A stretch of 64,000 nt of DNA, from the NCBI GenBank assembly GCA_947465215.1, contig CANHZX010000001.1, forward strand, positions 1,718-65,717. Reading direction: 5' to 3'. A program made the translations under genes and the position numbers. Positions 6,679 to 58,845 of this stretch are shown here, piece by piece. The notes beneath the pieces were generated by a model. That model saw nothing but the letters and a program-made list of their open reading frames with translations, was not told the DNA's origin and did not search any database. Source of the stretch: Betaproteobacteria bacterium. GTDB lineage: Bacteria > Pseudomonadota > Gammaproteobacteria > Burkholderiales > SG8-41. Positions within the stretch are counted from its first letter, which is position 1, and each line of letters begins with the position of its first letter.

Positions 6679-7479
6679 TTACGTTTTGTAGTCCGGGTAA
6701 CGCATCTCGACCAGCGCGAGACTCGCCACCCAGTCGCGGCTTTCTGCGTCATAGACACCCATGCGGCCGAATTTCGCCGCACGCGCCACGCACACCTCGT
6801 GGTCCGGCAGGATCAGCTTGCCGCCGCCGGCGAGTGCACCGATCTGCGCGCGGCAGGCCAGTTCAAAGAAGTGGTGATAGATATAGGCCTCGGGCAAGGT
6901 CTTGCCGCAGACCAGCGCACCGTGATTCTCCAGCAGCATGGTCCAGTGATCGCCCAGCGCCGCCGCCAGTTGATCCGCGCCTTCGCGCGTCGTGTCATCG
7001 GTGAGGTTGGGATAACGCGCAATGCGGTTGTAAAAACGCATCGCCTGCTGGGTCAGCGGCAGCAGGCCGTGCTGTTGCGCCGACACCGCAAGATTGGCAG
7101 GCGAATGGGTATGCACTGCGGCATTGATGTCCGGCCGCGTTCTCAATACCGCGGCATGCAGGTTGTAAGCCGCCGGGCTGGCCTTGAACGGTGACACGCC
7201 GACCTGGCGGCCTTCGAGGTCATACTTCACCAGATTCGACGCCGTCACCTGCTCCATCAACACGTTGTCGGCCTTGACCAGAAAATGCCCCGGCTCGCCG
7301 GGCACACGCACCGAAATATGGTTGTAGGTCAGATCAACAAACACGAAATGCGCAACCAGCCGGTGCGCTGCCGCCAGTTCACAGCGTGCCTGCCATTCCG
7401 CCGCGGAAATCCCTGTCCGTGACACGCGCGGGCGCGCGGTACGCGTCGCGGCATGTTTCTTCTTCGACCGGGTGGCCAT
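6679..7479 (-). CDS. class II aldolase/adducin family protein
   Basis: Aldolase_II-like core with a His cluster (AVHTHSP..., ENHG). Basic N-terminal extension MATRSKKKHAATRTARPR. Confidence 0.8.
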   Translation of the reverse strand: MATRSKKKHAATRTARPRVSRTGISAAEWQARCELAAAHRLVAHFVFVDLTYNHISVRVPGEPGHFLVKADNVLMEQVTASNLVKYDLEGRQVGVSPFKASPAAYNLHAAVLRTRPDINAAVHTHSPANLAVSAQQHGLLPLTQQAMRFYNRIARYPNLTDDTTREGADQLAAALGDHWTMLLENHGALVCGKTLPEAYIYHHFFELACRAQIGALAGGGKLILPDHEVCVARAAKFGRMGVYDAESRDWVASLALVEMRYPDYKT

Positions 7480-7485
7480 GACGGT

Positions 7486-8454
7486 TCAGTCGACCTTCGC
7501 GCCGGAAATACGCACAACTTTTTCGTATTTTTCCATGTCGCGTTTCACAAAGGCCGTGAACTCCTCGACGCTGCTGCCCACCGGATCGGCGCCGAGCGCG
7601 ATGAACTGCGCCTGCATCTCCGGCGTCTTCACGGTTTTTACCAAAGCGCCATTGACGCGGCTGACGATAGTGCGCGGGGTTTTGGCCGGCGCGAACATGC
7701 CGAACCAGTTGACCGCCTCGAAACCGGGCACGCCGGATTCATGGATGGTCGGTACATCCGGCAGCTGCGGCGAACGCTGCAGACTGGCAATACCCAGCAC
7801 GCGGATCTTGCCTGTCTTGATGTAGCCGACAATCGGCGCGACCGAATTGAACATCATGTTCATGTGGCCGGCCAGTACATCGGTCACCGCCTGCGGCGCT
7901 CCCTTGTACGGCACGTGAACAATGTCGACACCCGCCATCTGCTTGAACAGCTCGCCGGCAAGGTGGTTGGCGACGCCGTTGCCGGCGGAGGCGTAATTCA
8001 GTTTACCCGGCTGCGACTTGGCCAGCGCGATCAGTTCCCGGACGGTCTTCGCCGGCACTGAGGGGTGAGTCATCAGCACAAAGGGTCCGATCGAAATCAG
8101 GCTGACCGGCGCGAAATCGCGAATGGTGTCGTAGGGAATACCTTTGCGCATATGAGGCAGGATGGTCAGCGCGCCGGGGCTGCTGATGAACAGCGTGTAG
8201 CCGTCAGGGGCTGATTTCGCAGCAATCTCGGCGCCAATGACCCCGCCGCCACCCGCGCGGTTGTCAGCCACCAATGACACGCCGAGCTGTTGCGACAACC
8301 CCGGGAACACCAAGCGCGCGGTGACATCAGGTGTTGCACCCGCGGGGACCGACAGAATCACGCGGATCGGCTTGTCCGGCCATTCGGCAGCCTGTGCAGC
8401 AAATGCCACCAGCGCCACGACCACGGACAATCCTGCTTTGGACATTGTTTTCAT
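7486..8454 (-). CDS. Bug family tripartite tricarboxylate transporter substrate-binding protein (TctC-like)
   Basis: Signal peptide. Family blocks PIRVI..P.G...D, DNR.G.GG, PDGYT, HVPYKG, LP(D)VPT. RBS AGGAGGAG. Confidence 0.9.
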   Translation of the reverse strand: MKTMSKAGLSVVVALVAFAAQAAEWPDKPIRVILSVPAGATPDVTARLVFPGLSQQLGVSLVADNRAGGGGVIGAEIAAKSAPDGYTLFISSPGALTILPHMRKGIPYDTIRDFAPVSLISIGPFVLMTHPSVPAKTVRELIALAKSQPGKLNYASAGNGVANHLAGELFKQMAGVDIVHVPYKGAPQAVTDVLAGHMNMMFNSVAPIVGYIKTGKIRVLGIASLQRSPQLPDVPTIHESGVPGFEAVNWFGMFAPAKTPRTIVSRVNGALVKTVKTPEMQAQFIALGADPVGSSVEEFTAFVKRDMEKYEKVVRISGAKVD

Positions 8455-8563
8455 TGAAACTCCTCCTGACTGGGCGATGCATGGTAACGGTTCGCTGCCT
8501 GCCGGTAAAATCGGGCCTCGGCCGCATTCAAACCATCACCAGACACCCACCGGAGGAATTCTC

Positions 8564-9313
8564 ATGGCAGCAGGCAAGGAACTCGCAGGCAAGGTCGCAC
8601 TCGTCACCGGCGCGTCACGCAACATCGGCCGCGCCATCGCGATCGCACTGGCCGAAGCCGGTGCCACCGTCGCCGTCAACGCGCGCAGCGCCAAAGCGGA
8701 TGCCGATGCCGTGGTCGCTGAAATCCGCGCTGCCGGCGGTGTGGCGGAAACCTATATCGCCGATATCGCCGACAGCAAGGCCGTCAACGCCATGGTAGCC
8801 GACATCACCACAAAACACGGCAAGGTGGACATGCTCATTCTCAACGCATCGATCCGCAAGGAAACCGCGTTCATCGACATGAGTTATGAAGAATGGCGTA
8901 GCCTGCTGTCGATCACCCTCGATGGTTCCTTCTTCTGCACCAAAGCCTGCCTGCCATCGATGATCACGGCCGGCGGCGGCAGCATCGTCACGCTGGGCGG
9001 CATGACCGCGCTGTCGGGTGCCAAGAAACGCGTACACGGTTCAGTCGGCAAACATGGCTTGTGGGGCATGACCCGCGCACTGGCCAAGGAACTCGGCGAA
9101 CACCGGATCAACGTCAACTGTGTGGCGCCTGGACAGATGGATACCGCACGCGCGGCAGACCGTTCGGAACGCGCCCCGGTCACCAATGTGCCGATGGGCC
9201 GGCGCTCGACACCCGAAGAAGTCGCAGGGATTGTGCGTTATCTGTGCACGCCGGCCGGTCGCATGATCAGTGGACAGCTGATCTATGTGGACGGTGGTCA
9301 ACAAATGTTCTGA
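8564..9313 (+). CDS. SDR-fold protein, atypical (no YxxxK, no catalytic Ser)
   Basis: Rossmann motif GKVALVTGASRNIGRAIA. No Y-x3-K anywhere in the protein. The active-site region reads TLGGMTALSG...VHGSVGKHG. ATG at 8564. Confidence 0.85.
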   Translation: MAAGKELAGKVALVTGASRNIGRAIAIALAEAGATVAVNARSAKADADAVVAEIRAAGGVAETYIADIADSKAVNAMVADITTKHGKVDMLILNASIRKETAFIDMSYEEWRSLLSITLDGSFFCTKACLPSMITAGGGSIVTLGGMTALSGAKKRVHGSVGKHGLWGMTRALAKELGEHRINVNCVAPGQMDTARAADRSERAPVTNVPMGRRSTPEEVAGIVRYLCTPAGRMISGQLIYVDGGQQMF

Positions 9314-9327
9314 TGAATCTAAAGCAC

Positions 9328-11112
9328 CTACTGCGCGACAACTCCTTCATGCATGAACTGCAGCCGCGCCAGATGGGCATACAGTCCGTCGGCGCGCAGC
9401 AGTTCATCATGGGTGCCGGTGGAATGCAGATGACCGCGCTCCAGCACCAGAATACGGTCGGCAGTGCGCACCGTCGCCAGGCGATGCGCAATCACCAGCG
9501 TGGTGCGGCCGCGCGACAGGCTCTCCAGTGCCGCAGCGACCTGACGTTCACTTTCGGCGTCGAGTGAACTGGTCGCTTCATCCAGCAGCAGGATCGGACG
9601 ATCGGCCAGCAGGGCCCGCGCGATCGACAGCCGCTGGCGCTGACCGCCTGACAGGCGCACGCCGCGCTCACCCAGCTCGGTATCCAGACCCTGCGGCAGC
9701 CGTTCGATGAATTCCGTGGCATGCGCCGCCGCACAGGCCGCGCGCACTTCCTCGAGACTCGCGTCGGGACGGCCGAAACGAACGTTCTCGGCGACGGTCG
9801 CCGCGAAAATCACCGGGTCCTGAGACACCAGCGCGACCGCCCGGCGCAGTTGCAACGGTTCGCAATGGCGCAGGTCGGCGCCGTCGATCAGCACACGCCC
9901 GGCCTGCGGATCGTAAAAGCGCAGCAGCAGCGCGAAAATTGTTGTCTTGCCCGCACCCGAAGGACCGACCAGCGCGACGCGCTCCCCCGGATGCACGGAA
10001 AAATCCAGTGTCGACAGCGCCGGCGCGTCGAGCCGCGTCGGATAGGCAAAGCTGACGTTGTCAAAACGAATTTCGCCGCGCGGCTGCGCCGGCAGCTGGA
10101 TACGCGGCTCAACCACCAACAGGGCGGATTTTGCATCGAGCAGTTCCATCAGTCGTTCAGTGGCGCCCGCGGCACGCTGGATCTCGCCCCAGACTTCGGA
10201 CACCGTACCCGCGCCGCTGGCGACAATGCCGGCATAAAACACAAAGGCCGAAAGCTGCCCGGCGGTCAGACGGCCTTCGAGCACATCGTGGCCACCAATC
10301 CACAGGATCACCCCGACGGCGCAGAAGGCGATCAGCATCACCGATGAAATCAGCCAGGCCTTGACGCGCACGCGCTCAACACCCGAGGTGCAGGCTGCCG
10401 CGATCGCGGCATCAAATGTCTCCGCGGTCCGCGGCTCATGACCATAGGCCTGCACGGTGCGGATTTCATGCATCGCCTCATCAACCTGCGCCGACACCTC
10501 AGCGACGCGATCCTGGTTACTCCGCGACAGCCGGCGCACATAACGGCCGAGCAGCAGGATCGGAATCAGCGTCGCCGGCACGCCGAGCACGATCAGGAAA
10601 GCCAGCCGCGGACTGGTGGTGAACAGCAGCACCAGTGCGCCGACCATCATCAGGCCGTTGCGCAGCAGCATCGACAGGCCGAAACCGATGACCTGGCGCA
10701 GCTGCTCGCTGTCGTTGGTGACCCGCGACACGATATCGCCGGTGCGCGTGGCGTCGAAAAACGCCGGCGACAGCGTCAGCACATGCGCAAACACCGCGCG
10801 GCGCAGATCAGCGATCACCCGTTCGCCGGTGCTCATCATCAGGTAAAACCGCGCATAGGTGGATACCGCCAGCACCACGGCAACCGCGATCACGCCGGCC
10901 AGCGCGGCATTAAGCATCTCAGGATTGCCGCTGCCGAAACCGGAATCAATGACAAAACGCAGCCCCTGCCCTAGCGCCAGCACCGATCCGGAAGCAACCA
11001 GCAGCGCAACCAGCGCAATCGCCACGCGGCCGCGGTAAGGCTGCAGGAAACGCATCAGCCGGCGCAGTTGTGTGACATCGCCTTTGACGGCAGCAGTATC
11101 AGCAGGGTTCAA
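9328..11112 (-). CDS. ABC exporter, fused transmembrane and ATP-binding domains (ABCB/MsbA-like half transporter)
   Basis: Six-TM N-terminal half. Walker A GPSGAGKTT, signature LSGGQRQR, Walker B ILLLDEATS. Confidence 0.85.
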   Translation of the reverse strand: MNPADTAAVKGDVTQLRRLMRFLQPYRGRVAIALVALLVASGSVLALGQGLRFVIDSGFGSGNPEMLNAALAGVIAVAVVLAVSTYARFYLMMSTGERVIADLRRAVFAHVLTLSPAFFDATRTGDIVSRVTNDSEQLRQVIGFGLSMLLRNGLMMVGALVLLFTTSPRLAFLIVLGVPATLIPILLLGRYVRRLSRSNQDRVAEVSAQVDEAMHEIRTVQAYGHEPRTAETFDAAIAAACTSGVERVRVKAWLISSVMLIAFCAVGVILWIGGHDVLEGRLTAGQLSAFVFYAGIVASGAGTVSEVWGEIQRAAGATERLMELLDAKSALLVVEPRIQLPAQPRGEIRFDNVSFAYPTRLDAPALSTLDFSVHPGERVALVGPSGAGKTTIFALLLRFYDPQAGRVLIDGADLRHCEPLQLRRAVALVSQDPVIFAATVAENVRFGRPDASLEEVRAACAAAHATEFIERLPQGLDTELGERGVRLSGGQRQRLSIARALLADRPILLLDEATSSLDAESERQVAAALESLSRGRTTLVIAHRLATVRTADRILVLERGHLHSTGTHDELLRADGLYAHLARLQFMHEGVVAQ

Positions 11113-11135
11113 AGGATGTCCATCTCATGACCATC

Positions 11136-11621
11136 TCAAAATCGCGGCTGGCGTGATACATGCATGCGTACGCCGAGCTGCGCAGCTTCCAGCGTGACTT
11201 CCGCCGGCTTCACTGCCACCACTTCGACTTCATATTCCCCGTCGGCTGGAATGTCGATCTGCAGCATCGGCTGCACCAGCGAGGACGGCGGGCCAGATGA
11301 TTCGACCGGCGGCAACTCGGGGCTGTTGACGTGGAATTCGCCGGTCCCGGTCGTGCCGTTGCTGCCGCGCAGGGTCACGCGGTAGGTATTCCAGCGTCGG
11401 TGTTCATCACGCTTGCCCCAGACAAAGTCGGCATGCAGCGTGAAAGCCACGGGACTCATGTCCGACTTCAGCAGGATGCGCACCGGCGCATAACTGCCGT
11501 CGGCACTGCGCTGCAGCGGGATGCGGGCAACCTCCTCGCCGCCCAGCAACGCATCGCATCCCGTAAGTGTGATTGCGGATACCAGCGCGAACGCCGCAAG
11601 TGCGAGCGTCCGCGCCTGCAT
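11136..11621 (-). CDS. lipoprotein, function unknown
   Basis: Lipobox LTGC after a hydrophobic signal. The start overlaps the upstream stop by 1 nt (TGATG). Confidence 0.6.
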   Translation of the reverse strand: MQARTLALAAFALVSAITLTGCDALLGGEEVARIPLQRSADGSYAPVRILLKSDMSPVAFTLHADFVWGKRDEHRRWNTYRVTLRGSNGTTGTGEFHVNSPELPPVESSGPPSSLVQPMLQIDIPADGEYEVEVVAVKPAEVTLEAAQLGVRMHVSRQPRF

Positions 11622-12412
11622 CAGTTTTTCACCTTGCCGAGGAAATCCAGCATCGCCTTGTTGAAGGCTGCCGGCTGCTCAACGTTGGACAGATGCGCTG
11701 CCGACGGGATGATCAGCAGTTCCGATCCGCGCAGATTGGCCTGGATCTGGCGCGCCATTTCCGGCGGCGTGCCGTGGTCCTGGTCGCCGACGATGACCAG
11801 CGCCGGACAGTTGATGTCCTTCAGCTGGTCGAGTACATCGATCTTGGCAATGGCTTCACAGCTGCCGGCAAAACCTGCCACCGGCGTGTTGCGGATATCT
11901 TTGCCGATCTTCTCCATGATCGCGGGCTGGGCCTTGCGGAAGGGTTCGGTGAACCAGCGTCCCAGCGTGCTGTCGACCAGCACATCCATGCCCTGTGCTC
12001 GCGCCATTTTCACCCGCTCACCCCACATTTGCTCGGCGTTGGGCGGCCGGCGGCTGGTGGTGTCGGCGAGGATCATGCTGCTGAACACGCCGGGATATTT
12101 CAGCGCATAGGTTTCACCGATCATGCCGCCCATCGACAGGCCGATCCAGTGTGAATGCTTGATGCCCAGTGAGGCGAAAAGACCGTGCAGGTCATCCGCC
12201 ATCTGCTCCAGCGTATAGGTCACATCCGGAGCATCACTGGCGCCATGGCCGCGGGTATCGAAACGCAGCACCTTGTACCCCTTGGACACCAGTAGTTTCG
12301 CCTGGTCATCCCACATCGACAGATTGCAGGCCAGCGAATGCGACATCGTCACCCACGGGCCTTCGCCCTCGATGACACAGTTGATTTCAATACCGTTGGT
12401 TTTGATTTTCAT
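11621..12412 (-). CDS. alpha/beta hydrolase, 3-oxoadipate enol-lactonase-like (PcaD-like)
   Basis: HSLACNLSMWD, nucleophile elbow GLSMGG and a C-terminal AAH motif resemble PcaD-type enol-lactonases. ATG at 12412 is preceded by AGGAGG. Confidence 0.75.
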   Translation of the reverse strand: MKIKTNGIEINCVIEGEGPWVTMSHSLACNLSMWDDQAKLLVSKGYKVLRFDTRGHGASDAPDVTYTLEQMADDLHGLFASLGIKHSHWIGLSMGGMIGETYALKYPGVFSSMILADTTSRRPPNAEQMWGERVKMARAQGMDVLVDSTLGRWFTEPFRKAQPAIMEKIGKDIRNTPVAGFAGSCEAIAKIDVLDQLKDINCPALVIVGDQDHGTPPEMARQIQANLRGSELLIIPSAAHLSNVEQPAAFNKAMLDFLGKVKN

Positions 12413-12441
12413 GTCCGCTCCTCCTTTAGTTGCGCTTTGAC

Positions 12442-13425
12442 TCATTGCGCCTTGATATTTCCGGCCTTCGCCAGCCTGGTGAATGTCGCGATATCCGATG
12501 CGATCAGCTTGTCGAAACCTTCCGGCGTGGTCGGCGACGGCTCAAGGCCGATCGGCGCCCAGCGCCGTTTCACGTCGTCTTCGCTGAGAATGCGTTTGAC
12601 CTCGCGATTGAGTTCAGCAATCACCGGCGCCGGCGTCTTCGCGGTGGTGACCAGACCGAACCACAGGATTGCGTCATAGCCCGGAACGCCGGAATCGGCG
12701 ATGGTCGGCACGTCCGGCAGCAGCGCATCGCGCTTCAGCGAGGACACACCCAGCGCCAGCAGCTTGCCGTCACGCACCTGCGGCACGGCATTGGCGATCG
12801 GTGCCATGAAAAACTGCACACGGCCAGTCATCGCTTCGGCCAGCGCCTCGGGGATGCCTTTGAAAGGAATGTGTACGACGTCGAGTTTCGCCATGCTCTT
12901 CAAAAGCTCACCGGCGAAATGCGTGCCGCTGCCGACACCCGCTGAGGAAAAATTCATCGAACCCGGTTTGGCGCGGGCCGCCGCAAACAGATCTTTCAGG
13001 GAACGGAAGCCGGAGGGCGAAGTCACCAGCACATACTTCGACACTGCCGACAGCGAGATTCCCATCAGGTCGCGGCGGGCGTCATACGGCAGCTTGTCGT
13101 AAATCGCCGGCGCCACGGCATGCGCCGAGGACACCGACAGCAGCGTATAGCCGTCGGGGTTGGCCGTCGCTGTCAGATTCGCGGCGATGGTGCCGCCGGC
13201 GCCCGGCCGGTTGTCGACGATGACCTGCTGCTTGAATTCTTCAGTGAGTTTCTGTGCGAGATAACGCGCCGTGATGTCCGGACCGCCGCCGGGCGTGAAG
13301 CCGACGAGAATGCGAACCGGCTTGGTCGGATATTCACCGGCCGGTGTCGGGCCGCCCTTCTGCGCGGCTTGCGCGACCGCGCCTGTCGCCAGCGCAATAA
13401 CCGCAATGAATTGCAAGAACTTCAT
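12442..13425 (-). CDS. Bug family substrate-binding protein (TctC-like)
   Basis: Only the C-terminal 327 aa of the 630-aa ORF are Bug-like. ATG at 13425 with GGAGG. Signal peptide MKFLQFIAVIALATGAVAQA. Confidence 0.9.
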   Translation of the reverse strand: MKFLQFIAVIALATGAVAQAAQKGGPTPAGEYPTKPVRILVGFTPGGGPDITARYLAQKLTEEFKQQVIVDNRPGAGGTIAANLTATANPDGYTLLSVSSAHAVAPAIYDKLPYDARRDLMGISLSAVSKYVLVTSPSGFRSLKDLFAAARAKPGSMNFSSAGVGSGTHFAGELLKSMAKLDVVHIPFKGIPEALAEAMTGRVQFFMAPIANAVPQVRDGKLLALGVSSLKRDALLPDVPTIADSGVPGYDAILWFGLVTTAKTPAPVIAELNREVKRILSEDDVKRRWAPIGLEPSPTTPEGFDKLIASDIATFTRLAKAGNIKAQ

Positions 13426-13608
13426 GATGCCTCCGGACACTTTATGGAATTTTTCGGCGGGGGTTTGTTGAAAACCCCGGGCCGTGACTATACCAGTCGT
13501 CGCAGGGCAATACAGCATGTGGACGAGCCTGCGGGCATGGTCGCAACGACGCGCATTCCCCGTTATGCTTGCGGCTCCTTTTTCGGGGTGCGAAATCCGT
13601 AGATCATT

Positions 13609-14361
13609 ATGAGCGCAACAAAAGAACTCACTGGCAAGGTCGCGCTGGTCACCGGTGCGGCGAAAAACCTCGGCCGCGCCATCGCGCTGGAACTGGCAGT
13701 CGCCGGCGCCAAAGTCGCGATCAACACCCGCGCTTCCCGCGCCGAAGCCGACGCCGTCGCTCAGGAAATCCGTGCTGCCGGCGGTACAGCTTCTGTATTC
13801 CTCGCCGATATCGCTGATGCCGACGCCGTGCAGGGCATGCACGCGGCAGTCGCTGCCGAACTCGGTGCGGTCGACATTCTGGTACTCAATGCCTCCGTGC
13901 GTCGCGAGATTCCGTTCATGGAAATGAGCTTCGACGAATGGCGGCAGGTGATGGGCATCTCTCTCGACGGCTCCTTTCATTGCATCCAGGCAGTCTTGCC
14001 GGGCATGCTGAAAGCGGGACACGGCAACGTGATCTCGCTCGGTGGGGATACTGCGCTCAACGGGGCTGTCGGCAAGGTACACAGTTCTGCAGGGAAAAGC
14101 GGCCTCGCCGGCATGACGCGCGCACTGGCGCGGGAATTTGGCCCGCAAGGCATACGCTTCAACTGCGTCTCGCCGGGACACTTCAACACTGTGCGGGTCG
14201 GCAAGCGCGCCGAGCGCCCTGCCGCGACCGGACATATTCCGCTGAGCCGTTATGGCGAACCGAACGAGATCGCCGCCACAGTACGTTTCCTGTGCAGCCC
14301 CGGTGCCGGCTTCATCACCGGCCAGACGATCCACGTCAACGGCGGCCAGTGGATGTTTTGA
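13609..14361 (+). CDS. SDR-fold protein, atypical paralog of 8564..9313 (no YxxxK, no catalytic Ser)
   Basis: GKVALVTGAAKNLGRAIA. Active-site region SLGGDTALNG...VHSSAGKSG. Collinear with 8564..9313 from N- to C-terminus (GQTIHVNGGQWMF). Confidence 0.85.
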   Translation: MSATKELTGKVALVTGAAKNLGRAIALELAVAGAKVAINTRASRAEADAVAQEIRAAGGTASVFLADIADADAVQGMHAAVAAELGAVDILVLNASVRREIPFMEMSFDEWRQVMGISLDGSFHCIQAVLPGMLKAGHGNVISLGGDTALNGAVGKVHSSAGKSGLAGMTRALAREFGPQGIRFNCVSPGHFNTVRVGKRAERPAATGHIPLSRYGEPNEIAATVRFLCSPGAGFITGQTIHVNGGQWMF

Positions 14362-14410: not shown

Positions 14411-14986
14411 ATGACCACCCGACACCCCGAACGTTTCCCCGCAATCCCGCCCGAGCAATGGAACGAGGAGCAGAAAAAAGTCGCTGCCGCCATCGCCTCC
14501 GGTCCCCGCGGTGAAGTCCGCGGTCCTTTCCTTGCACTGCTGCGCAGCCCCGGCCTCGCGCACACCGTGCAGCAGGTCGGCGAATACCTGCGCTTCAAAT
14601 GCCCGCTGGACCGGCGCATTGCCGAGATGTCGACGCTGATGGCGGCGCGTCACTGGACGCAGCAATATGAGTGGCAGTCGCATTACAAACACGCCATGAA
14701 AGCCGGACTCAACCCGGCGATCGCGCAGGCCATCGCCGAAGGCCGCCGCCCGACCGGCATGGCGATTGACGAAGAAGCGCTGTACGACATGCTCACCGAA
14801 GTGCTGCACAACCAGAGCGTCTGTGATGCGACCTATTCCCGCGCGCTCGGCGTGTTCGGCGAACAGGGCGTGATCGAACTGGTCGCCATCGCCGGTTATT
14901 ACGCGATGCTGGCGATGGTTCTCAACGTCGGCCGCAAGGCGCTGCCGGCCGGACAGGAACCGCAGCTGCCCTGGTTCCCGAACTGA
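14411..14986 (+). CDS. carboxymuconolactone decarboxylase family protein (AhpD-like fold)
   Basis: Length and helical repeat pattern fit CMD-family proteins. An AT-rich leader with an AAGAGGA RBS precedes it. Confidence 0.7.
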   Translation: MTTRHPERFPAIPPEQWNEEQKKVAAAIASGPRGEVRGPFLALLRSPGLAHTVQQVGEYLRFKCPLDRRIAEMSTLMAARHWTQQYEWQSHYKHAMKAGLNPAIAQAIAEGRRPTGMAIDEEALYDMLTEVLHNQSVCDATYSRALGVFGEQGVIELVAIAGYYAMLAMVLNVGRKALPAGQEPQLPWFPN

Positions 14987-14999
14987 ACTGAAGCAGCAG

Positions 15000-16190
15000 A
15001 TGCTGCAGTTCCTGTTGCTGCCGGCCCTGCTGGCGGGACATTCCTTTGCATCGATGGCGGTGCTGGTGTTGCCGGCGGTGGCACCCGCCGTCGCACGCGA
15101 CTACGGCTTCGACCCTTCGCTGATCGGTTACCAGATCAGTCTGGTCAGTCTCGGCATGGTGGTGACGCTGACACTGCTCGGCAGCACTACACGCCGTTAC
15201 GGTGCGGCGCGAACCAACCAACTGGGCCATGCACTGACTGCCACCGGCATGCTGGTGCTGCTGATTCCCTATAGCGCTTTCCTGATCATCGGTTCGCTGG
15301 TCATCGGACTCGGCTACGGCATGATCACGCCTTCAGCTTCGCACCTGCTGATGCGTTACACCCCGCCGCAGCGGCGCAGCACGGTATTCTCAATTCACCA
15401 GACCGGCATTCCCGCCGGCGGCATGCTCGCCGCATTGATTGCACCAGCAGTAACGATCTACGCCGGCTGGCGCTGGGCCGTAGTACTGAGCGCGCTGCTG
15501 CTGTTCGGCGTAGTGCTGCTGATGCAGAGCGGTCGCCGCAGTTGGGATGACGACCGCGACCGAAATGCACCGGTGGTGACCCCCAACCCGCTCGCCGGTG
15601 CCATTGCAATCTGGCAGCAGCGCGAGCTGCGGCTGATCACCATCGCCGGCAGCTGTTTTTCGTGGGCGCAGTTCTGCGCTGCGACTTTTGCCGTGGTCGC
15701 CTGCGTCGAGACCCTGGGCATGAATCTGGTGGTAGCGGGTACGGTGCTGACAGTGGTGCAGATTGCCAGCGCCTCCGGCCGCGTGCTGATCGGCTGGATC
15801 ACCGACCGTGTCGGCGATACCGCGCGCGTGCTGTCATGGAATGCCGGAATACTGACCTTGTTCACGCTGGGCGGCTTCGCCATCCATGACGGAACGCCGC
15901 TGTTGCTGGTCTATCTGCTGTTTGCCGTGCTCGGCGCCACTTCAGGATGCTGGCCCGGCGCCATCCTTGCCGAAGTCGGACGGCTGGCACCGCAGGGTCA
16001 GGTGAGTCTGGCGATCAGCGGCTCTCTGGTGATCACCAATGTCGGCAAATTCATCGGCCCGATCATTTTTGCCAACGTGTATGCGCTGACGCGCAGCTAC
16101 GGCATCGCTTTTGTATCGCTGGTGGTGCCGGCTGCAGTCGCGTTCTATTGCCTCGTTGCCGCAAGACGCGGCAAAACTGGCAGCGCCTAA
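15000..16190 (+). CDS. MFS transporter
   Basis: About 12 hydrophobic segments and 396 aa. Confidence 0.8.
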   Translation: MLQFLLLPALLAGHSFASMAVLVLPAVAPAVARDYGFDPSLIGYQISLVSLGMVVTLTLLGSTTRRYGAARTNQLGHALTATGMLVLLIPYSAFLIIGSLVIGLGYGMITPSASHLLMRYTPPQRRSTVFSIHQTGIPAGGMLAALIAPAVTIYAGWRWAVVLSALLLFGVVLLMQSGRRSWDDDRDRNAPVVTPNPLAGAIAIWQQRELRLITIAGSCFSWAQFCAATFAVVACVETLGMNLVVAGTVLTVVQIASASGRVLIGWITDRVGDTARVLSWNAGILTLFTLGGFAIHDGTPLLLVYLLFAVLGATSGCWPGAILAEVGRLAPQGQVSLAISGSLVITNVGKFIGPIIFANVYALTRSYGIAFVSLVVPAAVAFYCLVAARRGKTGSA

Positions 16191-17295: not shown

Positions 17296-17883
17296 TTATG
17301 CGGTGATACCGATCTTGCGCTGCAGGTCGCCGATCACCTGCGTCCACGGGCGCTTGCGCCAGCGCACCCGCTCACCGATCGGTTTGTTCTCGACGTCCGC
17401 ATGCACCTTCATCGCCACAAACACCGGCCCGGGTTTGCCGAGGATTTCCGGCAGCGCCGCTACTGCTGCTTCCAGTTCGGTAAACGAATAGGTGCGCGGA
17501 TACCCGGCGCCCTTCGCCAGCATTTCATAGTTGACGTTCTTGGCGTTCGGCACCGGCTGGCCACCGGTGGTGGCGTAACACTCGTTGTCGAGCATGAAAT
17601 GGTAAAAGTTCGCGGGATTCTGCTCGGCAATGGTCAGCAGGATGCCCAGCCCCATCTGCACATCACCTTCGGAATCAAACAGCACCACCCGTCGCTTGGG
17701 TTGAGCCATCGCCAGACCGAATGCAAATGCCGCGTGTCCGCCCATCGCCGGATCGCCCATCGGCAGATCAAGGTCAGGCTGATCGCTGATCTTCACCCAG
17801 TGTTTGCCGCCGCGTCCGGGCACCACTATGGCGTCGCCGCGATGGGGTTTGAATGCTTTGAGAAAATCTTCAGTACTGAACAT
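17296..17883 (-). CDS. thiamine-diphosphate enzyme beta subunit (ComE / sulfopyruvate-decarboxylase-beta-like, PP-binding half)
   Basis: ThDP motif EGDVQMGLGILLTIAEQNPANFYHFMLDNE (GD-x(~26)-N). 195 aa. Confidence 0.75.
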   Translation of the reverse strand: MFSTEDFLKAFKPHRGDAIVVPGRGGKHWVKISDQPDLDLPMGDPAMGGHAAFAFGLAMAQPKRRVVLFDSEGDVQMGLGILLTIAEQNPANFYHFMLDNECYATTGGQPVPNAKNVNYEMLAKGAGYPRTYSFTELEAAVAALPEILGKPGPVFVAMKVHADVENKPIGERVRWRKRPWTQVIGDLQRKIGITA

Positions 17884-17891
17884 TTGCGCTC

Positions 17892-18410
17892 CTAGCCGTT
17901 GAACTGGTATTCGTCGCCGACGAGCACCGCCACCGGACGTTTTGTTTTTTTCGATTCATTGAAGGCCAGACTGATGCGATCGGCATCAGCGTCGCTTTCG
18001 ACAAGGTAATAGTTGATGCGGAAAGCGTTGAGGAAAGGCTCGGTGTAGACCGACGCGGTATCCGCAGTAGGGGCACCGTGTCGCGTCCAGCCGCGCATGC
18101 CAACGACAAACACCACCGGAATTTCGAGTCCAAAGAGCCAGCCGCGGATGGAATCGCCAGACTCCATCAGACCGGTGTTCTGAATCAGCACAACCGGTAT
18201 AGCACCGCCGACCGCCAGACCCGCCGCCACCGAACAGGCCAGGCCCTCCCGCGGCACTGCCACCAGCGTCAGCGACGGCTCTGCTTTCATCAGCAGGTAA
18301 AGCCAGTTGGTTTCGCTGTCGGGCAGCCATACGACATGGGTGACGCCGTGTTTCTTCAGCTGATTCAGAACAATTTCGGGGCTCAGGTGAGCCTTGGATG
18401 CGTCATTCAT
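17892..18410 (-). CDS. thiamine-diphosphate enzyme alpha subunit (ComD / sulfopyruvate-decarboxylase-alpha-like, pyrimidine-binding half)
   Basis: 172 aa. The REG (catalytic Glu) and IQNTGLMESG blocks are typical of the TPP_enzyme_N half. An 8-nt gap separates it from the beta subunit. Confidence 0.75.
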   Translation of the reverse strand: MNDASKAHLSPEIVLNQLKKHGVTHVVWLPDSETNWLYLLMKAEPSLTLVAVPREGLACSVAAGLAVGGAIPVVLIQNTGLMESGDSIRGWLFGLEIPVVFVVGMRGWTRHGAPTADTASVYTEPFLNAFRINYYLVESDADADRISLAFNESKKTKRPVAVLVGDEYQFNG

Positions 18411-18455: not shown

Positions 18456-19427
18456 TCAATCGCCCTCCAGCTTGGCTTCAGCGACCACCTTGGTCCACTT
18501 GGCGATTTCGGCTTTGACATGGGAGGCAAACTGATCCGGAGTCTTGGCGGTGATCATCACCCCCTGATCTTCAAACCGCTTGCGCAACACCCCCGCCAGC
18601 ACCTTGTTACCGTCGGCATGCAGCTTGTCGAGGATCGGTTGCGGAACCTTGGACTGTGTACACAAGCCGTACCACCCCGTGACATCGTAGCCCGGCACGC
18701 CGGATTCGGCGAAAGTCGGAACATCCGGCAATTGCGCACTGCGTTCTGCGGAGGTCACCGCGAGCCCGCGCAAGCGACCCGACTTCACTGCGGCGAGCGG
18801 TGCACCGGCGAGATTACCCACCGAGGACTCCATGTGGCCGCTGATCACATCGGCCAGGGCCTGCGACGCGCCCTTATACGGCACGTGGATGATGTTGATC
18901 TTGGTCATCGACTTGAGCAGTTCGATCGACAGGTGCGGCGAGGCGCCGACACCCGACGAGCCGTAGTTCAACTTGCCGGGATTCTTGCGGGCGTAATCGA
19001 TGTACTGCTGTAGATTCCTGATCGGCATCGAAGGATGCACCATGAACAGGTTAGGCACACCGCCGATCCACACCGGAAAGGCAAAATCACCGATCGGATC
19101 GTAAGTCAGGCGTTTGGCAAACCGGGCCGGTGTGACTGAATGCGAGCCGATGTTGCACAACACCATGGTGTAGCCGTCAGGCGGCGCCTTGGCCGTTGCT
19201 TCAGTGGCGATATTGCCTGCGGCGCCGGGCCGGTTCTCCACCAGCACGTTGCCGCCCCACAATTCGCCAAGCGCCTGCGCCATCATCCGCGCCGCGGTAT
19301 CAACACCGCCGCCCGGCGTATATCCGACCAGGATGCGCACCGGTCGCGTACCCGGGTAGTTCTGCGCCTGGACGACGCCGGCCGCGAACAATACAGAAAT
19401 CAGGATGATACGTATGGCGTTTTTCAT
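18456..19427 (-). CDS. Bug family substrate-binding protein (TctC-like)
   Basis: Signal peptide plus the Bug family blocks. RBS GAGGAG. Confidence 0.9.
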   Translation of the reverse strand: MKNAIRIILISVLFAAGVVQAQNYPGTRPVRILVGYTPGGGVDTAARMMAQALGELWGGNVLVENRPGAAGNIATEATAKAPPDGYTMVLCNIGSHSVTPARFAKRLTYDPIGDFAFPVWIGGVPNLFMVHPSMPIRNLQQYIDYARKNPGKLNYGSSGVGASPHLSIELLKSMTKINIIHVPYKGASQALADVISGHMESSVGNLAGAPLAAVKSGRLRGLAVTSAERSAQLPDVPTFAESGVPGYDVTGWYGLCTQSKVPQPILDKLHADGNKVLAGVLRKRFEDQGVMITAKTPDQFASHVKAEIAKWTKVVAEAKLEGD

Positions 19428-19525: not shown

Positions 19526-20506
19526 TCAGTCAATCTTGGCACCGGCCTTGCGGATCACTTCCGCCCATTTCGCAGAGTCCGTTCGCACCAGCGACCAGAA
19601 CTCTTCCGGCGTTCCGGTCAGCGGTTCAGAACCCAAAGCCAGAATGCGTTCAGTGGCCGCCGGCGAGTTCACCGCCTTGTTGAGTTTGGTATTGAGCGCA
19701 GCAACGATCGCCTTCGGAGTGCCCGCTGGAACCACCATACCGTGCCAGGTTGTGGCTTCATAACCGGCAACGCCGGATTCAATCAACGTAGGCACTTCGG
19801 GAAATACCGCGGAACGTTTTGCACCGGTTACCGCCAGTCCGCGCACGCGGCCGGCCTTGACGTGACCGCTGGCTGAATTAAGTCCCTCCATCATCAGTTG
19901 CACCTGCCCGGACATCAGATCGGCGATGGCTGCAGGACCACCCTTGTAAGGTACATGCACGATCTGCGTGCCGGTCATGTTCTTCAGCAGTTCGAAACCG
20001 ATGTGACCGGGCGAGCCGTTGCTCGACGACGCATTGAACAGCTTGCCGGGATTCTGCTTCGCGTAGTCGATGACTTCACGCATATTGCGGAACGGTGACT
20101 TCGGACTCGCCAGCACCATCATGTAGCCGGTAATGGTCTGCCCAACGGGCGCGAGTTCGCGCAACGCATCAATCGGCGGTTTGCTCACCAGATGCGGGCC
20201 GATGGCCAGCGAACCGATGGGGGCGTAGCCGATCGTGTAGCCGTCGCGCGAGGCCCGCGCTGTGAGTTCCATACCGAGCTGAAGTGCGCCGCCCGGCCGG
20301 TTATCGACGACCACCTGCTGGCCGAGTTCGCGCGCGAGTTCCGTGGCAACGATGCGCGCAACGTTGTCGGTCGAGGCCCCGACCGCCTGCGGCACGATCA
20401 TGCGCACCGGGCGATCTGGATAGGCGGACCATGCGGGGGCCGCCAGTATCAGCGACAACAGCAACCAGACTTTGCAACCGTTCGGCAATACCGTGGTGCC
20501 CTGCAT
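19526..20506 (-). CDS. Bug family substrate-binding protein (TctC-like)
   Basis: Signal peptide plus the Bug family blocks. RBS GGGGAGG. Confidence 0.9.
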   Translation of the reverse strand: MQGTTVLPNGCKVWLLLSLILAAPAWSAYPDRPVRMIVPQAVGASTDNVARIVATELARELGQQVVVDNRPGGALQLGMELTARASRDGYTIGYAPIGSLAIGPHLVSKPPIDALRELAPVGQTITGYMMVLASPKSPFRNMREVIDYAKQNPGKLFNASSSNGSPGHIGFELLKNMTGTQIVHVPYKGGPAAIADLMSGQVQLMMEGLNSASGHVKAGRVRGLAVTGAKRSAVFPEVPTLIESGVAGYEATTWHGMVVPAGTPKAIVAALNTKLNKAVNSPAATERILALGSEPLTGTPEEFWSLVRTDSAKWAEVIRKAGAKID

Positions 20507-20523: not shown

Positions 20524-21522
20524 TTAATTACCGCTGGTGATCCCCGCGGCCTTAACCGTCTTGGTCCATTTTGCCAGTTCGGCATGAATGAACTTGCGCG
20601 CTTCTGCGGCGCTGTTGCCCACGGGCACCGCGCCAAGACGGGCAACGCGCTCTTTCACATCCGGCAACGCCAGCAGGCGCACGGATTCGGCATTCAGTTT
20701 TTCGACCACGGGAGCGGGAATTTTCGCCGGCCCCATCATCACCACCCAGGACGTAGATTCATATCCTGGTACAGTCTCGGCAATCGGTATCGCATCCGGC
20801 AGTTCTGCGGAACGCGTCTTCGACGTGATACCCAGCACTTTCAGGCGACCGCCCTTAATGTGCGGCAAGGTTGCGATCAGCGTATCGAACATGACATTGA
20901 CCCGTCCGGCGAACAGGTCGGGGTGCGCCGCAGTACTGCCCTTGTACGGCACATGCAGCATCTTGACGCCGGTCATAAGCTTGAACAGCTCCGCGCTCAT
21001 GTGCGGGGAAGTGCCGGTGCCGCTGGACGCAAATGTCACGCCGTCGGGCTTGGATTTGGCGAGATCGATCAACTCCTTCACCGATTTCACCTGGAACTGG
21101 GGATTGCTCACCAGTACCAGCGGATTGGAAGCGGCGATAGTCACGAAAGTGAAATCGCGATCCGAGTCGTAGGGCAGTTTGTGGATCGCCGGGTTGATGG
21201 CAAAACTCAACGCAACCATGCCCAGCGTATAACCATCGGGCGCGGACTTGGCGACAAGATCGGTACCGATGATGCCGGAGGCGCCGGTGCGGTTGTCGAC
21301 CACCGCGGTCACACCCCAGGTCTGTGCGAATTTGTCGGCAAACAGGCGCGCGATGACGTCCGATGCACCACCCGGCGGGAAGGGCACGATGATGCGGATC
21401 GGCCGCTCGGGATAAGCGGCAGCAGCCGGCAGTGCAAAAACAGATGCGGCCAACAAAACAGCACAGGACATTGCAACGCGCAGGCAAAAGGCCGGCGCGG
21501 TCATGCATGAAACTTGAGACAT
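20524..21522 (-). CDS. Bug family substrate-binding protein (TctC-like)
   Basis: ATG at 21522 with GGAGGGG. Signal ...AVLLAASVFALPAAAA, then the Bug blocks. Confidence 0.9.
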   Translation of the reverse strand: MSQVSCMTAPAFCLRVAMSCAVLLAASVFALPAAAAYPERPIRIIVPFPPGGASDVIARLFADKFAQTWGVTAVVDNRTGASGIIGTDLVAKSAPDGYTLGMVALSFAINPAIHKLPYDSDRDFTFVTIAASNPLVLVSNPQFQVKSVKELIDLAKSKPDGVTFASSGTGTSPHMSAELFKLMTGVKMLHVPYKGSTAAHPDLFAGRVNVMFDTLIATLPHIKGGRLKVLGITSKTRSAELPDAIPIAETVPGYESTSWVVMMGPAKIPAPVVEKLNAESVRLLALPDVKERVARLGAVPVGNSAAEARKFIHAELAKWTKTVKAAGITSGN

Positions 21523-21790
21523 GTCATCCCCTCCGATGAAGGCGGCATTGTGGCGCATGTGGCACGACCGTGGAAGCCTTGCGCACCACCGTCCGTATGG
21601 TGTTACGCCGGACAATCGGCTTTTAAAAAATACTTTTTTATCAACATCTTATAAACGTAACTCAAAAACGCCGACTCACCGCCGGAAGATCTTCGCAATG
21701 CCATAGCGCCCAAATTGGCTATGCGCCAGAATATCGCCCTCGCGCCACGCGCGAAAAAAACCGAAATCACGCTATCAATTGGGGGAGTAC

Positions 21791-24873: not shown

Positions 24874-26037
24874 ATGCCGCTCGCCCTGCTACTCATTCTC
24901 ATCAGCATCACCTTCATTACCATGAAGGGCAGTCGCATCCTGATGACGCTATATGCGGTTGATCTCGGCGCAGGCCCTTTCGAAACCGGCATCCTGTTTG
25001 CACTGTACGGCCTGTTTCCGCTGCTGCTGGCCATCGCCGCCGGACGCCTCGCCGACCGCTTCGACAACCGCCTGCTGATGTACTGGGGGCTGGGCACTTA
25101 CACCGTCAGTCTGGTGCTGCCGTATTTTTTCCCGTCGCTGGCAACGCTTTATTTCGTTGCGCCGCTATGGGGATTCACCAGCATGCTGTGGGTGGTAGCT
25201 ACACAAAACCTGGTCGGCGTGCTGTCGACCACCGAAACCCGCACGCGCAACTTCAGTTATTACAGCCTCGGCGAATCTACCGGCTCGGTGATCGGCCCGA
25301 TCGCCGTCGGCCTGTCCATCGACACGTTCTCCCACGTGCCGACCTTCCTGCTGGTCGCCGTGATTCCGGCGGTTTGCGGACTGACTGTCGCGTTCAAGCG
25401 CGATCTGTATCCGTCGACGGCCACTGTCGGCAGCGGCACGCAGGCGCCGCGCAATATGAAAGATCTGCTCGCGCTGCCGGCGATGCGCAATGCATTGCTG
25501 TCGAACGCGGCGGTGATGACCGGCCTCGACCTGTTCAACCTGTACATGCCGATCTACGGCCACAGCCTGAAATTCTCGGCAACGACCATCGGCCTGATCA
25601 TGGGCGCCTTTGGCGTCGCCGCCTTCGTTACCCGCCTGTTCATTCCGCCGATCACCAAGCGCTACGGCGAACGCGCGATGCTCGCCGGCGCTTTCATTAT
25701 TTCGGGTGTGGCGTTCATGGCTTTTCCGCTGACCACCAGCGCGCCTTTGCTCGCAGCCAGTGCATTTTTACTCGGCCTCGGACTCGGTTGCGGCCAACCG
25801 CTGTCAATGATCCTGTCCTTCAATGCCGGACCACCCGGCCGCTCGGCGGAAGCGATTTCGATGCGCCTTGCAGTCAGTTACGGCGCTCATGTGTTCGTAC
25901 CACCGGCCTTCGGCGTCATCGGCGCTGCGGTCGGCGGCGTAGCCACCATTTTCTGGACCTGCGCCGCCATCATGGGCTGCGGATCATGGATCAACCGCAG
26001 CGCAGCCGTCGCTGCAGAACACAAGGAGAAGTCGTGA
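24874..26037 (+). CDS. MFS transporter
   Basis: About 12 hydrophobic segments. The stop overlaps the next start by 1 nt (gTGATGg). Confidence 0.8.
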   Translation: MPLALLLILISITFITMKGSRILMTLYAVDLGAGPFETGILFALYGLFPLLLAIAAGRLADRFDNRLLMYWGLGTYTVSLVLPYFFPSLATLYFVAPLWGFTSMLWVVATQNLVGVLSTTETRTRNFSYYSLGESTGSVIGPIAVGLSIDTFSHVPTFLLVAVIPAVCGLTVAFKRDLYPSTATVGSGTQAPRNMKDLLALPAMRNALLSNAAVMTGLDLFNLYMPIYGHSLKFSATTIGLIMGAFGVAAFVTRLFIPPITKRYGERAMLAGAFIISGVAFMAFPLTTSAPLLAASAFLLGLGLGCGQPLSMILSFNAGPPGRSAEAISMRLAVSYGAHVFVPPAFGVIGAAVGGVATIFWTCAAIMGCGSWINRSAAVAAEHKEKS

Positions 26038-26801
26038 TGGCAAGCTATCCCGAACTCAAGAACCGCGTTTCACTGATCACCGGCGCTGCGCAAGGCATCG
26101 GCGCGGAAACCGCGCGCCTATTTGCCGCGCAGGGCTGCAAGGTCGCCATCGTCGACATCGACGCCGACAACGGCAACAAGGTCGCTGATGCGATCGGCAA
26201 ATCCGGCGGAAATGCACGGTTCTTCAAAACAGACATTACGGACGCCGCATCGGTCGAGCAATGCATCGCCGGTATCATCGCAGGCTTCGGCGGTATCGAC
26301 ATCGTCATCAACTGCGCCGGCGGCTACGGCCGACTGGCGAGCGTGGAGGACATGACCATCGACGAGTGGGACCGCACCGTGACGCTGAACCTGCGCAGCG
26401 TGTTCCTGATCTGCAAGATGGCGATCCCGCACCTGAAAAAATCCAAAGCGGGACGCATCATCAATGTGTCATCGATTTCCGGGCGTACCGTACACGCCGC
26501 CTCATCGCCGGCATACGGCGCCGCCAAGGCCGGTGTAACCCAACTGACGCGTTTTCTCGCCTTCCAACTCGGTCCCGACAACATCACCGCCAACGCGGTG
26601 GCGCCGATCACCACACTGACGCCGCGTGTCGCCGCACTGCGCAGCGAAGCCGACATCGAACGCATCGCCTCGCAGGTACCGCTGCGCCGGCTGGCTGTTC
26701 CCGAAGATCACGCACAGGCGATGCTGTTCCTCGCCTCGGATGCCGCCGCTTACATCAACGGCGTGGTGCTGGACGTCAATGGCGGCCGGGTGATGATGTA
26801 A
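26037..26801 (+). CDS. classical SDR family oxidoreductase (FabG-like)
   Basis: TGAAQGIG, NVSSISG, YGAAK (canonical Ser/Tyr/Lys). Only the last 254 aa of the 544-aa ORF are real. Confidence 0.85.
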   Translation: MASYPELKNRVSLITGAAQGIGAETARLFAAQGCKVAIVDIDADNGNKVADAIGKSGGNARFFKTDITDAASVEQCIAGIIAGFGGIDIVINCAGGYGRLASVEDMTIDEWDRTVTLNLRSVFLICKMAIPHLKKSKAGRIINVSSISGRTVHAASSPAYGAAKAGVTQLTRFLAFQLGPDNITANAVAPITTLTPRVAALRSEADIERIASQVPLRRLAVPEDHAQAMLFLASDAAAYINGVVLDVNGGRVMM

Positions 26802-26845
26802 TGTAGCGACCTGCAGTCACAACAACGCTTTTCCGGAGGAGAAAA

Positions 26846-29888: not shown

Positions 29889-30038
29889 AACAGTCTCCAT
29901 GGGTGCAGGATTCCGGAATTGTTGCCGCATTCGGTCGCCAGGTATTTGATCCTGATCATAGTTTATCGCGCGGCGCAGCGTGCAAACATCATTCGACGCA
30001 TGCTAGGCTGCACCTCAAACAGTTCCGGAGGAGAAACG

Positions 30039-58589: not shown

Positions 58590-58845
58590 CTTTTCACTAA
58601 TCCAACACACTGCGATGGCAGAAGCGCACTTCCGGAAACCGCTAACCATTTGATTTACCGGCCAATTCATTCACCCGCCAATGACCGTATCGATAAAGCG
58701 AGTCCCCTCAGTGGTTCGGTATCCAGTTTTTAGAGGACAACACACGAAGCCAGACCTGCCGCCAAAGGTTGCCCCGCGCGGCGAATTTCACCATTATTCG
58801 ATTTTGGCAATAGACAATATATATAAACCCGAGGAGAAGTTTTTC

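Follow-up and report, generated by a model that had tools for sequence, protein, structure and literature searches.

FabG-like dehydrogenases without the catalytic Ser and Tyr, encoded beside Bug/TctC genes in a Betaproteobacteria bacterium

SDR1, SDR2 and their catalytic positions

[quoted passage not shown] This arrangement had been proposed in a preliminary description of the sequence and is borne out here, with spacers of 109 bp and 183 bp and with PF03401 matches for both Bug proteins (Table 1). The two SDR proteins match PF13561 (E-values of 1.5e-51 and 2e-52) and PF00106 (4.5e-46 and 3.5e-45), and share 55% identity and 74% similarity over the full length with one gap (E-value 3e-102), in agreement with their earlier assignment as collinear paralogs. 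Both belong to an uncharacterised, probably mis-annotated SDR clade, in which the catalytic constellation is replaced and a link to uptake by tripartite tricarboxylate transporters (TTT) is conserved.

The residue register was obtained from a HMMER alignment to solved FabGs and a MAFFT alignment that included E. coli FabG, and is unambiguous. Within the catalytic tetrad, Asn110 of E. coli FabG corresponds to Thr118 in SDR1 and to Ser in SDR2, Ser138 to Gly146 in both proteins, and Tyr151 to Gly159 in SDR1 and Ser in SDR2; Lys163, equivalent to Lys155, is the sole tetrad residue retained. One residue ahead of the Tyr position, His158 takes the place of Asn150. Direct reading of the sequences showed no Y-x3-K in either protein, and the earlier by-eye alignment, which had placed Gly or Ser at the Tyr position, Gly at the Ser position and a His just upstream, was reproduced by both programs. 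The tetrad Asn is replaced as well, beyond the Ser and Tyr losses noted earlier. The third SDR of the window (SDR3) is canonical, as had been described, and reads NVSSISG...YGAAK. The full signature is N20, S96, R98, T118, G146, R156, H158, G159, K163, and R196 in SDR1, and N20, S96, R98, S118, G146, K156, H158, S159, K163, and R196 in SDR2.

The dinucleotide-binding glycine motif was previously thought to be kept, which is not entirely the case. The motif reads TGASRNIG in SDR1 and TGAAKNLG in SDR2, i.e., TG-x3-N-x-G, with Asn20 at the middle Gly of TGxxxGxG. The NNAG motif is LNAS here (Gly replaced by Ser, and by Ala in most of the clade), and the PG motif is present as NCVAPG and NCVSPG.

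All of the 120 best SDR1 homologues (73-93% identity) carry T-G-H-G-K at the tetrad-Asn, Ser, Tyr-1, Tyr, and Lys positions, and S-G-H-S-K was found at the same positions in 104 of the 120 best SDR2 homologues. Wider relatives were searched among 1.84 billion cluster representatives, where more than half of the best 150 representative matches (37-53% identity) also lack the Ser and the Tyr, usually with the pattern ..NIGG...RAHVxAAK... In a neighbor-joining tree with five diagnostic columns masked, all 78 atypical representatives were placed in one clade with no canonical member inside; the clade also takes in two representatives that keep the Ser but lack the Tyr. SDR1 and SDR2 are two diverged members of this monophyletic clade of FabG-derived classical SDRs, in which the active site was probably rebuilt.

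A clade profile search (119 best or further members) gave the frequencies of the signature residues, which are 100% for Asn20, Arg98, Gly146, and Lys163, 99% for His158 and Arg196, and 97% for Arg156, whereas canonical relatives carry Gly, Thr, Ser, Gln, Asn/His, Lys, and Met at positions 20, 98, 146, 156, 158, 163, and 196, respectively. Across the data sets, the conservation of His158 ranges from 84 to 99%. The Tyr position is held by Val (80%), Gly (18%), or Ser (3%). Among the positions used for NADP(H) binding by classical SDRs, T15, G16, R19, G22, N39, D67, N94, A95, P189, G190, and T194 are 94-100% conserved, and Arg41 is 84% conserved.

The ratio of nonsynonymous to synonymous substitution rates (dN/dS) against orthologues is 0.09-0.19, at dS values of 0.76-1.43. 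The AlphaFold2 model has a predicted local distance difference test (pLDDT) score of 95.8, with lower values (77-86) in the lid residues 190-210, and Foldseek matched it to FabG structures at template modelling (TM) scores of 0.92-0.96 with at most 40% identity. SDR1 and SDR2 are maintained, folded, and functionally constrained proteins; a decaying gene copy is ruled out by the dN/dS values together with the monophyly and breadth of the clade, and the locus is no artefact either. We regard them as probable enzymes with a rebuilt active site, for which a function can be proposed (see below). Two-domain SDR fusions among the cluster representatives were inspected for an atypical domain joined to a canonical one, which would hint at a heteromer, and were set aside, as nearly all of them carry canonical YxxxK domains.

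No dedicated model for the clade was found among the family models, and the best NCBIfam match was the generic 'FabG' subfamily NF009466, where SDR1 (219.7 bits) and SDR2 (220.4 bits) score just under the cut-off of 222. Other clade members score 212-236 bits, and NF009466 was rejected as a clade-specific model because its cut-off lies within this range. The cut-off of the FabG equivalog TIGR01830 (297.75) is missed widely, with 194.9 and 213.0 bits. Ser/Tyr FabGs ranked first with the profile, with a query of 72 residues around the active site, and with Foldseek, none of which gave a solved clade structure, and no characterised SDR subfamily with such a motif was found among family models, structures, and the literature. 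An atypical L-threonate 3-dehydrogenase described in the literature was excluded as a relative; it has a normal Ser-Tyr-Lys triad and is unrelated.

The clade and FabG share the fold, the length, and the best sequence and structure matches (4dml/4dmm, 40% identity; the TM range above includes 4dmm), as well as NADP-type basic residues, Lys155, the PG motif, and a C-terminal TGQxIxVxGG. Unlike FabG, the clade has replaced Asn110, Ser138, and Tyr151, gained R98, R156, H158, and R196, substituted Asn for the middle Gly of TGxxxGxG, and turned NNAG into NAS or NAA. The residues R129 and R172 of E. coli FabG, which are the arginines that dock the acyl carrier protein (ACP), correspond to Gly137 and to His180 in SDR1 or Gln180 in SDR2; most of the clade has Gly at 137 and position 180 is variable, so the FabG arginines are not conserved. 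A true FabG function is unlikely for the clade. The context differs as well, consisting of TTT transport and MmgE/PrpD genes in the clade versus fatty-acid synthesis for FabG. A FabH-like (ACP_syn_III) gene with an AMP-binding gene occurs only in L098/L099 among the 21 clade contexts that were compared (~5-7 kb on each side), and no acp or further fab gene was seen among their annotated flanking genes, which most often encode TctC, MmgE/PrpD, hydrolases, and transporters. Nevertheless, clade proteins are publicly named '3-oxoacyl-ACP reductase', 'SDR family oxidoreductase', or 'hypothetical protein', and annotation pipelines name members FabG (e.g., 'fabG' in L105, P0495, P0146, and JGI names), which results from scores near the cut-off of the generic NF009466. 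The FabG name is likely a systematic mis-annotation, and being probably wrong, it spreads through annotation.

Bug partners and gene neighbourhoods across the clade

The Bug1-SDR1 pair persists across otherwise differing contexts. The SDR1 orthologues in L001 (90%), L004 (74%), and L031 (73%) are each arranged head-to-head with a Bug1 orthologue (84, 79, and 78%), although the remaining neighbours change: L001 has an aldolase II, L004 has a glyoxalase and an HbpS-like gene, and L031 has a LuxR-hydrolase fusion and a GGDEF-EAL gene. The orthologues of SDR2 keep Bug2 in L001 and L005, along with the hydrolase, the carboxymuconolactone decarboxylase (CMD)/AhpD-like family gene, and the MFS gene; the SDR2 synteny and the position of the CMD gene are seen in L001, L002, and L005. 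In this way, the earlier suggestion that the Bug and SDR genes form the conserved unit is supported at the ortholog level, with some qualifications. In L103, whose SDR is 71% identical to SDR2, a GMC oxidoreductase gene takes the divergent position and TctC is two genes away, and other partners recur in the wider clade.

More distant members of the same sub-branch of the clade also stand beside TctC genes. TctC-TctC-TauD is divergent to the clade SDR in L014, and TctC alone is divergent to it in L016. L021 contains a two-gene SDR-TctC module, directly preceded by genes for a PrmA-like (ribosomal-protein) methyltransferase and an M24 peptidase, and in L022 a class II aldolase, the family that also neighbours Bug1, is divergent to SDR-TctC-HbpS. 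These loci came from a genome scan with an alignment of close homologues, in which about 70 of the 80 loci listed were canonical FabG from unrelated phyla; L014-L022 and L031 were used. The cross-genome evidence for the Bug-SDR pairing is stronger than the adjacency in this genome.

Within the window, nine Bug/TctC genes were identified (7486-8454, 12442-13425, 18456-19427, 19526-20506, 20524-21615, 26846-27805, 29919-31022, 32102-33094, and 58681-59823). Bug adjacency is not particular to the atypical pair, because the canonical SDR3 directly precedes the Bug gene at 26846-27805, with an MFS gene on its other flank. The identity of Bug1 and Bug2 is 35%, each is nearer to other Bugs of the window, and those paired with an SDR gene form no clade in a star-like tree of 27 Bugs. 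Accordingly, the description of the two loci as a duplicated unit is unsupported, and a co-duplication of the Bug-SDR pair was rejected. No MmgE/PrpD gene is present in the window, nor was TctA found there by tblastn (TctB was not queried). Since Bug1 and Bug2 lack adjacent permease genes, the TTT system is incomplete at both loci; orphan Bugs are usual in the Bug-rich Burkholderiales.

In the wider clade, a TTT gene lies within three genes of the clade SDR in 16 of the 21 distinct contexts, and an MmgE/PrpD gene is directly adjacent to it in 10. Of the five contexts that lack a TTT gene, three (L009, L019, and L096) are truncated by a contig end or have only short flanks. The contexts include cultured Paracoccus, Phyllobacterium, Neorhizobium, and Pacificitalea. 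Members with Val at the Tyr position were found in Neorhizobium, Phyllobacterium, Paracoccus yeei, P. versutus, Pacificitalea, Usitatibacter, Vicinamibacterales, Pseudolabrys, and other metagenome-assembled genomes of Hyphomicrobiales. In these Val-type loci, MmgE/PrpD adjoins the SDR gene on either side, co-directionally and often with a 4-bp overlap, and the SDR gene usually lies in one block with tctC-tctB-tctA. A complete TctCBA stands beside clade SDRs in alphaproteobacterial and Usitatibacter loci, and five MmgE/PrpD genes surround the clade SDR in Pacificitalea.

For the MmgE/PrpD protein adjacent to the clade SDR, IDS epimerase and cis-aconitate decarboxylase are the nearest matches. 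According to a previous study, the MmgE/PrpD family acts on di- and tricarboxylate substrates through enolate intermediates (PMC12290011). The recurring theme of the neighbourhoods points to carboxylate uptake and conversion, which fits the three clade-specific arginines. Literature searches on modules of TTT, MmgE/PrpD, and SDR returned nothing specific to this combination.

Several other genes recur around the TctCBA-MmgE/PrpD-SDR block, including 'AbrB family transcriptional regulator' genes (PF05145 in L008), a PdxA-family gene, and several genes of the isocitrate/tartrate-dehydrogenase family. Such neighbours were seen in L104-L107 (Paracoccus yeei, Phyllobacterium zundukense, P. versutus, and Pacificitalea) and in L008 (Neorhizobium), which suggests a larger organic-acid island. 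In Usitatibacter-type operons, a gene for an HSP70/actin-fold ATPase-like protein, unusual for a catabolic operon, is located between tctC and the MmgE/PrpD-SDR pair (3324-4640 in L010-L012 and 2270-3592 in L100/L102).

Proposed function and alternative explanations

Our tentative proposal, which we hold at somewhat less than an even chance, is that SDR1 and SDR2 are cytoplasmic NADP(H)-dependent enzymes that act on an imported carboxylate through a His/Arg/Lys site. The substrate would be anionic, probably a di- or tricarboxylate; the neighbouring Bug/TctC protein would capture it in the periplasm, and a TTT permease encoded at another site would import it. Arg98, Arg156, and Arg196 would clamp the carboxylates over the nicotinamide so that hydride can be transferred, with the proton supplied by His158/Lys163, by the substrate itself, or by the solvent. 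Such a reaction could resemble the His/Arg logic of lactate/malate dehydrogenase or an 'ene'-type reduction that needs no Tyr, and the neighbours may carry out adjacent steps, namely the aldolase-II-fold enzyme for SDR1, and the PcaD-like hydrolase, the CMD-family protein, and the MFS transporter for SDR2. The evidence leans to a working ligand site in SDR1 and SDR2, based on the conservation of His158 and Lys163, the three clade arginines, the conserved NADP-binding residues, and the dN/dS range of 0.09-0.19.

Several points weigh against this proposal. Both the Tyr position (V, G, S, N, T, A, or L) and the tetrad-Asn position (N, I, T, V, A, S, or D) are variable within the clade, and relaxed constraint would fit such variation too. 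A P0215-like sub-branch carries Gln instead of His158, and L021/L022 carry Pro there along with His in place of R98, so that His158 cannot be a universal catalytic base. R98, R156, H158, and R196 are placed near the active site by homology with FabG, and cofactor binding could be changed by the Asn (or Arg) that stands in for the middle Gly of the motif. Two or three contexts (L094, L098, and Shinella L108) contain neither a TTT nor a PrpD gene. Finally, with nine Bugs in 64 kb and SDR3 beside one of them, a single adjacency in this genome is weak evidence.

The variation at the Tyr position, together with the loss of three of the four tetrad residues, would also agree with an unlikely, but in our view the most serious, alternative, in which SDR1 and SDR2 are non-catalytic NADP(H)-binding pseudo-dehydrogenases that still bind the cofactor and perhaps a ligand. 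Such proteins would sense the redox state or a metabolite, or would regulate or scaffold a neighbouring enzyme as its subunit (in most of the clade MmgE/PrpD, other partners for SDR1 and SDR2). The 4-bp overlaps of PrpD and SDR genes in several loci suggest stoichiometric co-production, and a precedent is given by an inactive alanine-dehydrogenase homologue, which senses NAD+ and regulates a CoA transferase encoded by an adjacent gene (bioRxiv 10.1101/2025.10.31.685773). In addition, the PDB matches include BbsC, an SDR chain with a solved structure. BbsC is an inactive subunit. However, three near-fixed arginines and a histidine exceed the needs of a cofactor sensor, no PrpD partner accompanies SDR1 or SDR2 in the window, and SDR1 is monocistronic with neighbours that change between orthologous loci, the only constant partner evident being a periplasmic Bug. 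A BbsCD-like heteromer would call for a canonical SDR next door, and none was directly adjacent to the clade SDR in the 21 contexts; the nearest canonical SDR of the window lies ~11.7 kb from SDR2, at 26037. BbsC and the Thermus alanine-dehydrogenase-like protein resemble the clade in being dehydrogenase folds that lack catalytic residues, are encoded beside a partner, and may retain cofactor binding, but BbsC has the adjacent active SDR BbsD, whereas the clade gained conserved basic residues besides losing catalytic ones.

It is quite unlikely that the proteins are ordinary beta-keto/ketoacyl reductases (FabG or 3-oxoacyl-ACP reductase) whose scaffold reduces without the triad. The FabG best matches and the NF009466 scores, which some clade members pass, speak for it, and E. 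coli FabG S138A/Y151F/K155A mutants were reported to be active in vivo and in vitro (PMC7973133). On the other hand, the TIGR01830 cut-off is failed, the ACP-docking positions R129/R172 are Gly137 and His/Gln180, no fab or acp genes lie nearby among neighbours devoted to transport and carboxylate processing, and the clade is monophyletic and apart from canonical FabG-like representatives. Even less probable is a non-redox enzyme on the SDR scaffold (decarboxylase, epimerase/isomerase, or lyase), in which NADP would be structural or transient, with the His, Arg, and Lys as acid/base groups and carboxylate ligands. The SDR fold has been re-used for non-redox chemistry in haloalcohol dehalogenases, and the site of the clade is rich in basic residues. 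Recurrent neighbour families perform decarboxylation or enolate chemistry on carboxylates (MmgE/PrpD, relatives of aldolase-II-fold decarboxylases, and CMD; PMC12290011). The strong conservation of 2'-phosphate and nicotinamide residues (R19, R41, T194, and the PG motif), however, is explained most simply by hydride transfer.

Returning to the carboxylate enzyme that we propose, known systems offer partial parallels. In L-lactate/malate dehydrogenase, a His acid/base and Arg carboxylate clamps position and polarise the substrate for hydride transfer. The clade might work in a similar manner, by analogy, albeit on a different fold, as that family is unrelated and combines a Rossmann fold with a separate catalytic domain. 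SimC7, an angucyclinone ketoreductase, is an SDR-superfamily reductase that works without the Ser-Tyr-Lys triad by substrate-assisted catalysis, with the proton coming from the substrate (PMC5039031). Like the clade, it lacks the catalytic Tyr (Ile in SimC7), but it keeps the Ser, has His in place of the Lys, belongs to a different SDR branch, and uses a polyketide substrate, and no sequence relationship to the clade was seen beyond the fold. In isopiperitenone reductase from Mentha, the change from Tyr to Glu switches C=O to C=C reduction (PMC4988501), which is a possible model of how a Tyr-less SDR stays useful; this plant enzyme differs in having Glu at the Tyr position, the Ser and Lys kept, a neutral substrate, and no arginine cluster.

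If active, the clade would represent a second, naturally fixed SDR active site without Ser and Tyr, a question that is sharpened by the triad-less FabG mutants (PMC7973133). A broader version of our proposal, somewhat unlikely as a whole, holds that the clade is a previously unrecognised catalytic type in the SDR fold, in which Asn-Ser-Tyr was exchanged for a His/Arg site, and which would supply the missing NADP(H)-dependent redox step, on free di- or tricarboxylates, of a widespread, hitherto undescribed catabolic module of TTT, MmgE/PrpD, and SDR; SDR1 and SDR2 would then be two offshoots, each specialised for a substrate and newly paired with a Bug of its own. These genes are markers of a recurrent, uncharacterised module, in which orphan Bug/TctC proteins are tied to a specific cytoplasmic enzyme. 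To our knowledge, the ligand is known for only a minority of the hundreds of Bug proteins in Burkholderiales; once identified, the ligand of Bug1 or Bug2 would directly suggest the SDR substrate, and vice versa. The clade is directly testable in cultivable carriers such as Paracoccus versutus (homologue WP_036753116.1) and Neorhizobium (WP_119943849.1 in Neorhizobium sp. NCHU2750).

Intergenic spacers and other features of the window

The features of the two loci are listed in Table 1. A GGAGG Shine-Dalgarno sequence is located 7 nt upstream of the SDR1 ATG. Two longer open reading frames (ORFs) from mechanical ORF calling were rejected as high-GC artefacts, namely one of 630 aa at 12442-14334 (-), in which Bug2 is fused to SDR2 antisense sequence, and one of 358 aa at 8237-9313 (+), an N-terminal extension of SDR1 that overlaps the start of Bug1. 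Gene calls in orthologous loci and ribosome-binding sites match the shorter starts.

Table 1. Features of the SDR1 and SDR2 loci and the canonical SDR3 of the window
Feature	Position	Strand	Description	Basis
SDR1	8564..9313	+	atypical FabG-like SDR, 249 aa, monocistronic	ORF list, Pfam, alignments
SDR2	13609..14361	+	SDR1 paralogue, 250 aa; gene 1 of SDR2-CMD-MFS	ORF list, Pfam, alignments
Bug1	7486..8454	-	TctC-family periplasmic binding protein, divergent from SDR1	PF03401, E 1e-74
Bug2	12442..13425	-	TctC-family binding protein, divergent from SDR2	PF03401, E 1e-59
Bug1-SDR1 divergent spacer	8455..8563		109 bp	
Bug2-SDR2 divergent spacer	13426..13608		183 bp	
Conserved block	13487-13496		ACTATACCAG	
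Conserved block	13512-13523		ACAGCATGTGGA	
Conserved block	13539-13546		GGTCGCAA	
Conserved block	13556-13569		TTCCCCGTTATGCT	
Class II aldolase/adducin-fold protein	6679..7479	-	6 bp downstream of Bug1 (Bug1-AldII operon)	
PcaD-like alpha/beta hydrolase	11621..12445	-	translationally coupled to Bug2	
CMD/AhpD-like family protein	14411..14986	+	downstream of SDR2	weak Pfam match
MFS transporter	15000..16190	+	last gene of SDR2-CMD-MFS unit	
SDR3	26037..26801		third SDR of the window, canonical	

The Bug2-SDR2 spacer contains four blocks of 8-14 nt that are identical in the window, L001, and L005, loci whose coding regions are near saturation at synonymous sites (dS of ~0.9). The blocks are candidate promoter or operator elements and are consistent with sites shared by the divergent units. 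By eye, an extended -10-like element that faces Bug2, TGGTATAGT, can be read in the reverse complement of ACTATACCAG. This spacer has no adjacent regulator gene, and the Bug1-SDR1 spacer is poorly conserved among orthologous loci. A scan with sigma-70 and terminator consensus sequences found sites no more commonly than in shuffled sequence and none in the two spacers.

The N-termini of Bug1 and Bug2 are hydrophobic and signal-peptide-like (MKTMSKAGLSVVVALVAFAAQA and MKFLQFIAVIALATGAVAQA). Among the neighbours of the Bug genes, the aldolase-II-fold protein has solved relatives that include the decarboxylases NovR and Mlr6791. The start of the PcaD-like hydrolase gene overlaps the Bug2 stop by 4 nt, and the hydrolase reaches 244.9 bits against the 3-oxoadipate enol-lactonase model, under the cut-off of 255.85. 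The CMD protein scores 23.9 bits against a Pfam cut-off of 23.

SDR3 is part of a co-directional MFS-SDR3-Bug block at 24874-27805, in which the MFS stop and the SDR3 start share base 26037. A split thiamine-diphosphate enzyme (separate TPP_enzyme_N and TPP_enzyme_C genes, 17296-18410) adjoins the Bug gene at 18456-19427, and the same arrangement was found in L005. On the minus strand, Bug2 and the hydrolase are followed at 9328-11621 by an ABC exporter with fused membrane and ATPase domains, whose end is convergent with SDR1, and by a putative lipoprotein of 161 aa. L005 likewise has the exporter together with a short ORF of similar size, and an exporter of this kind is located near the clade SDR in L022.

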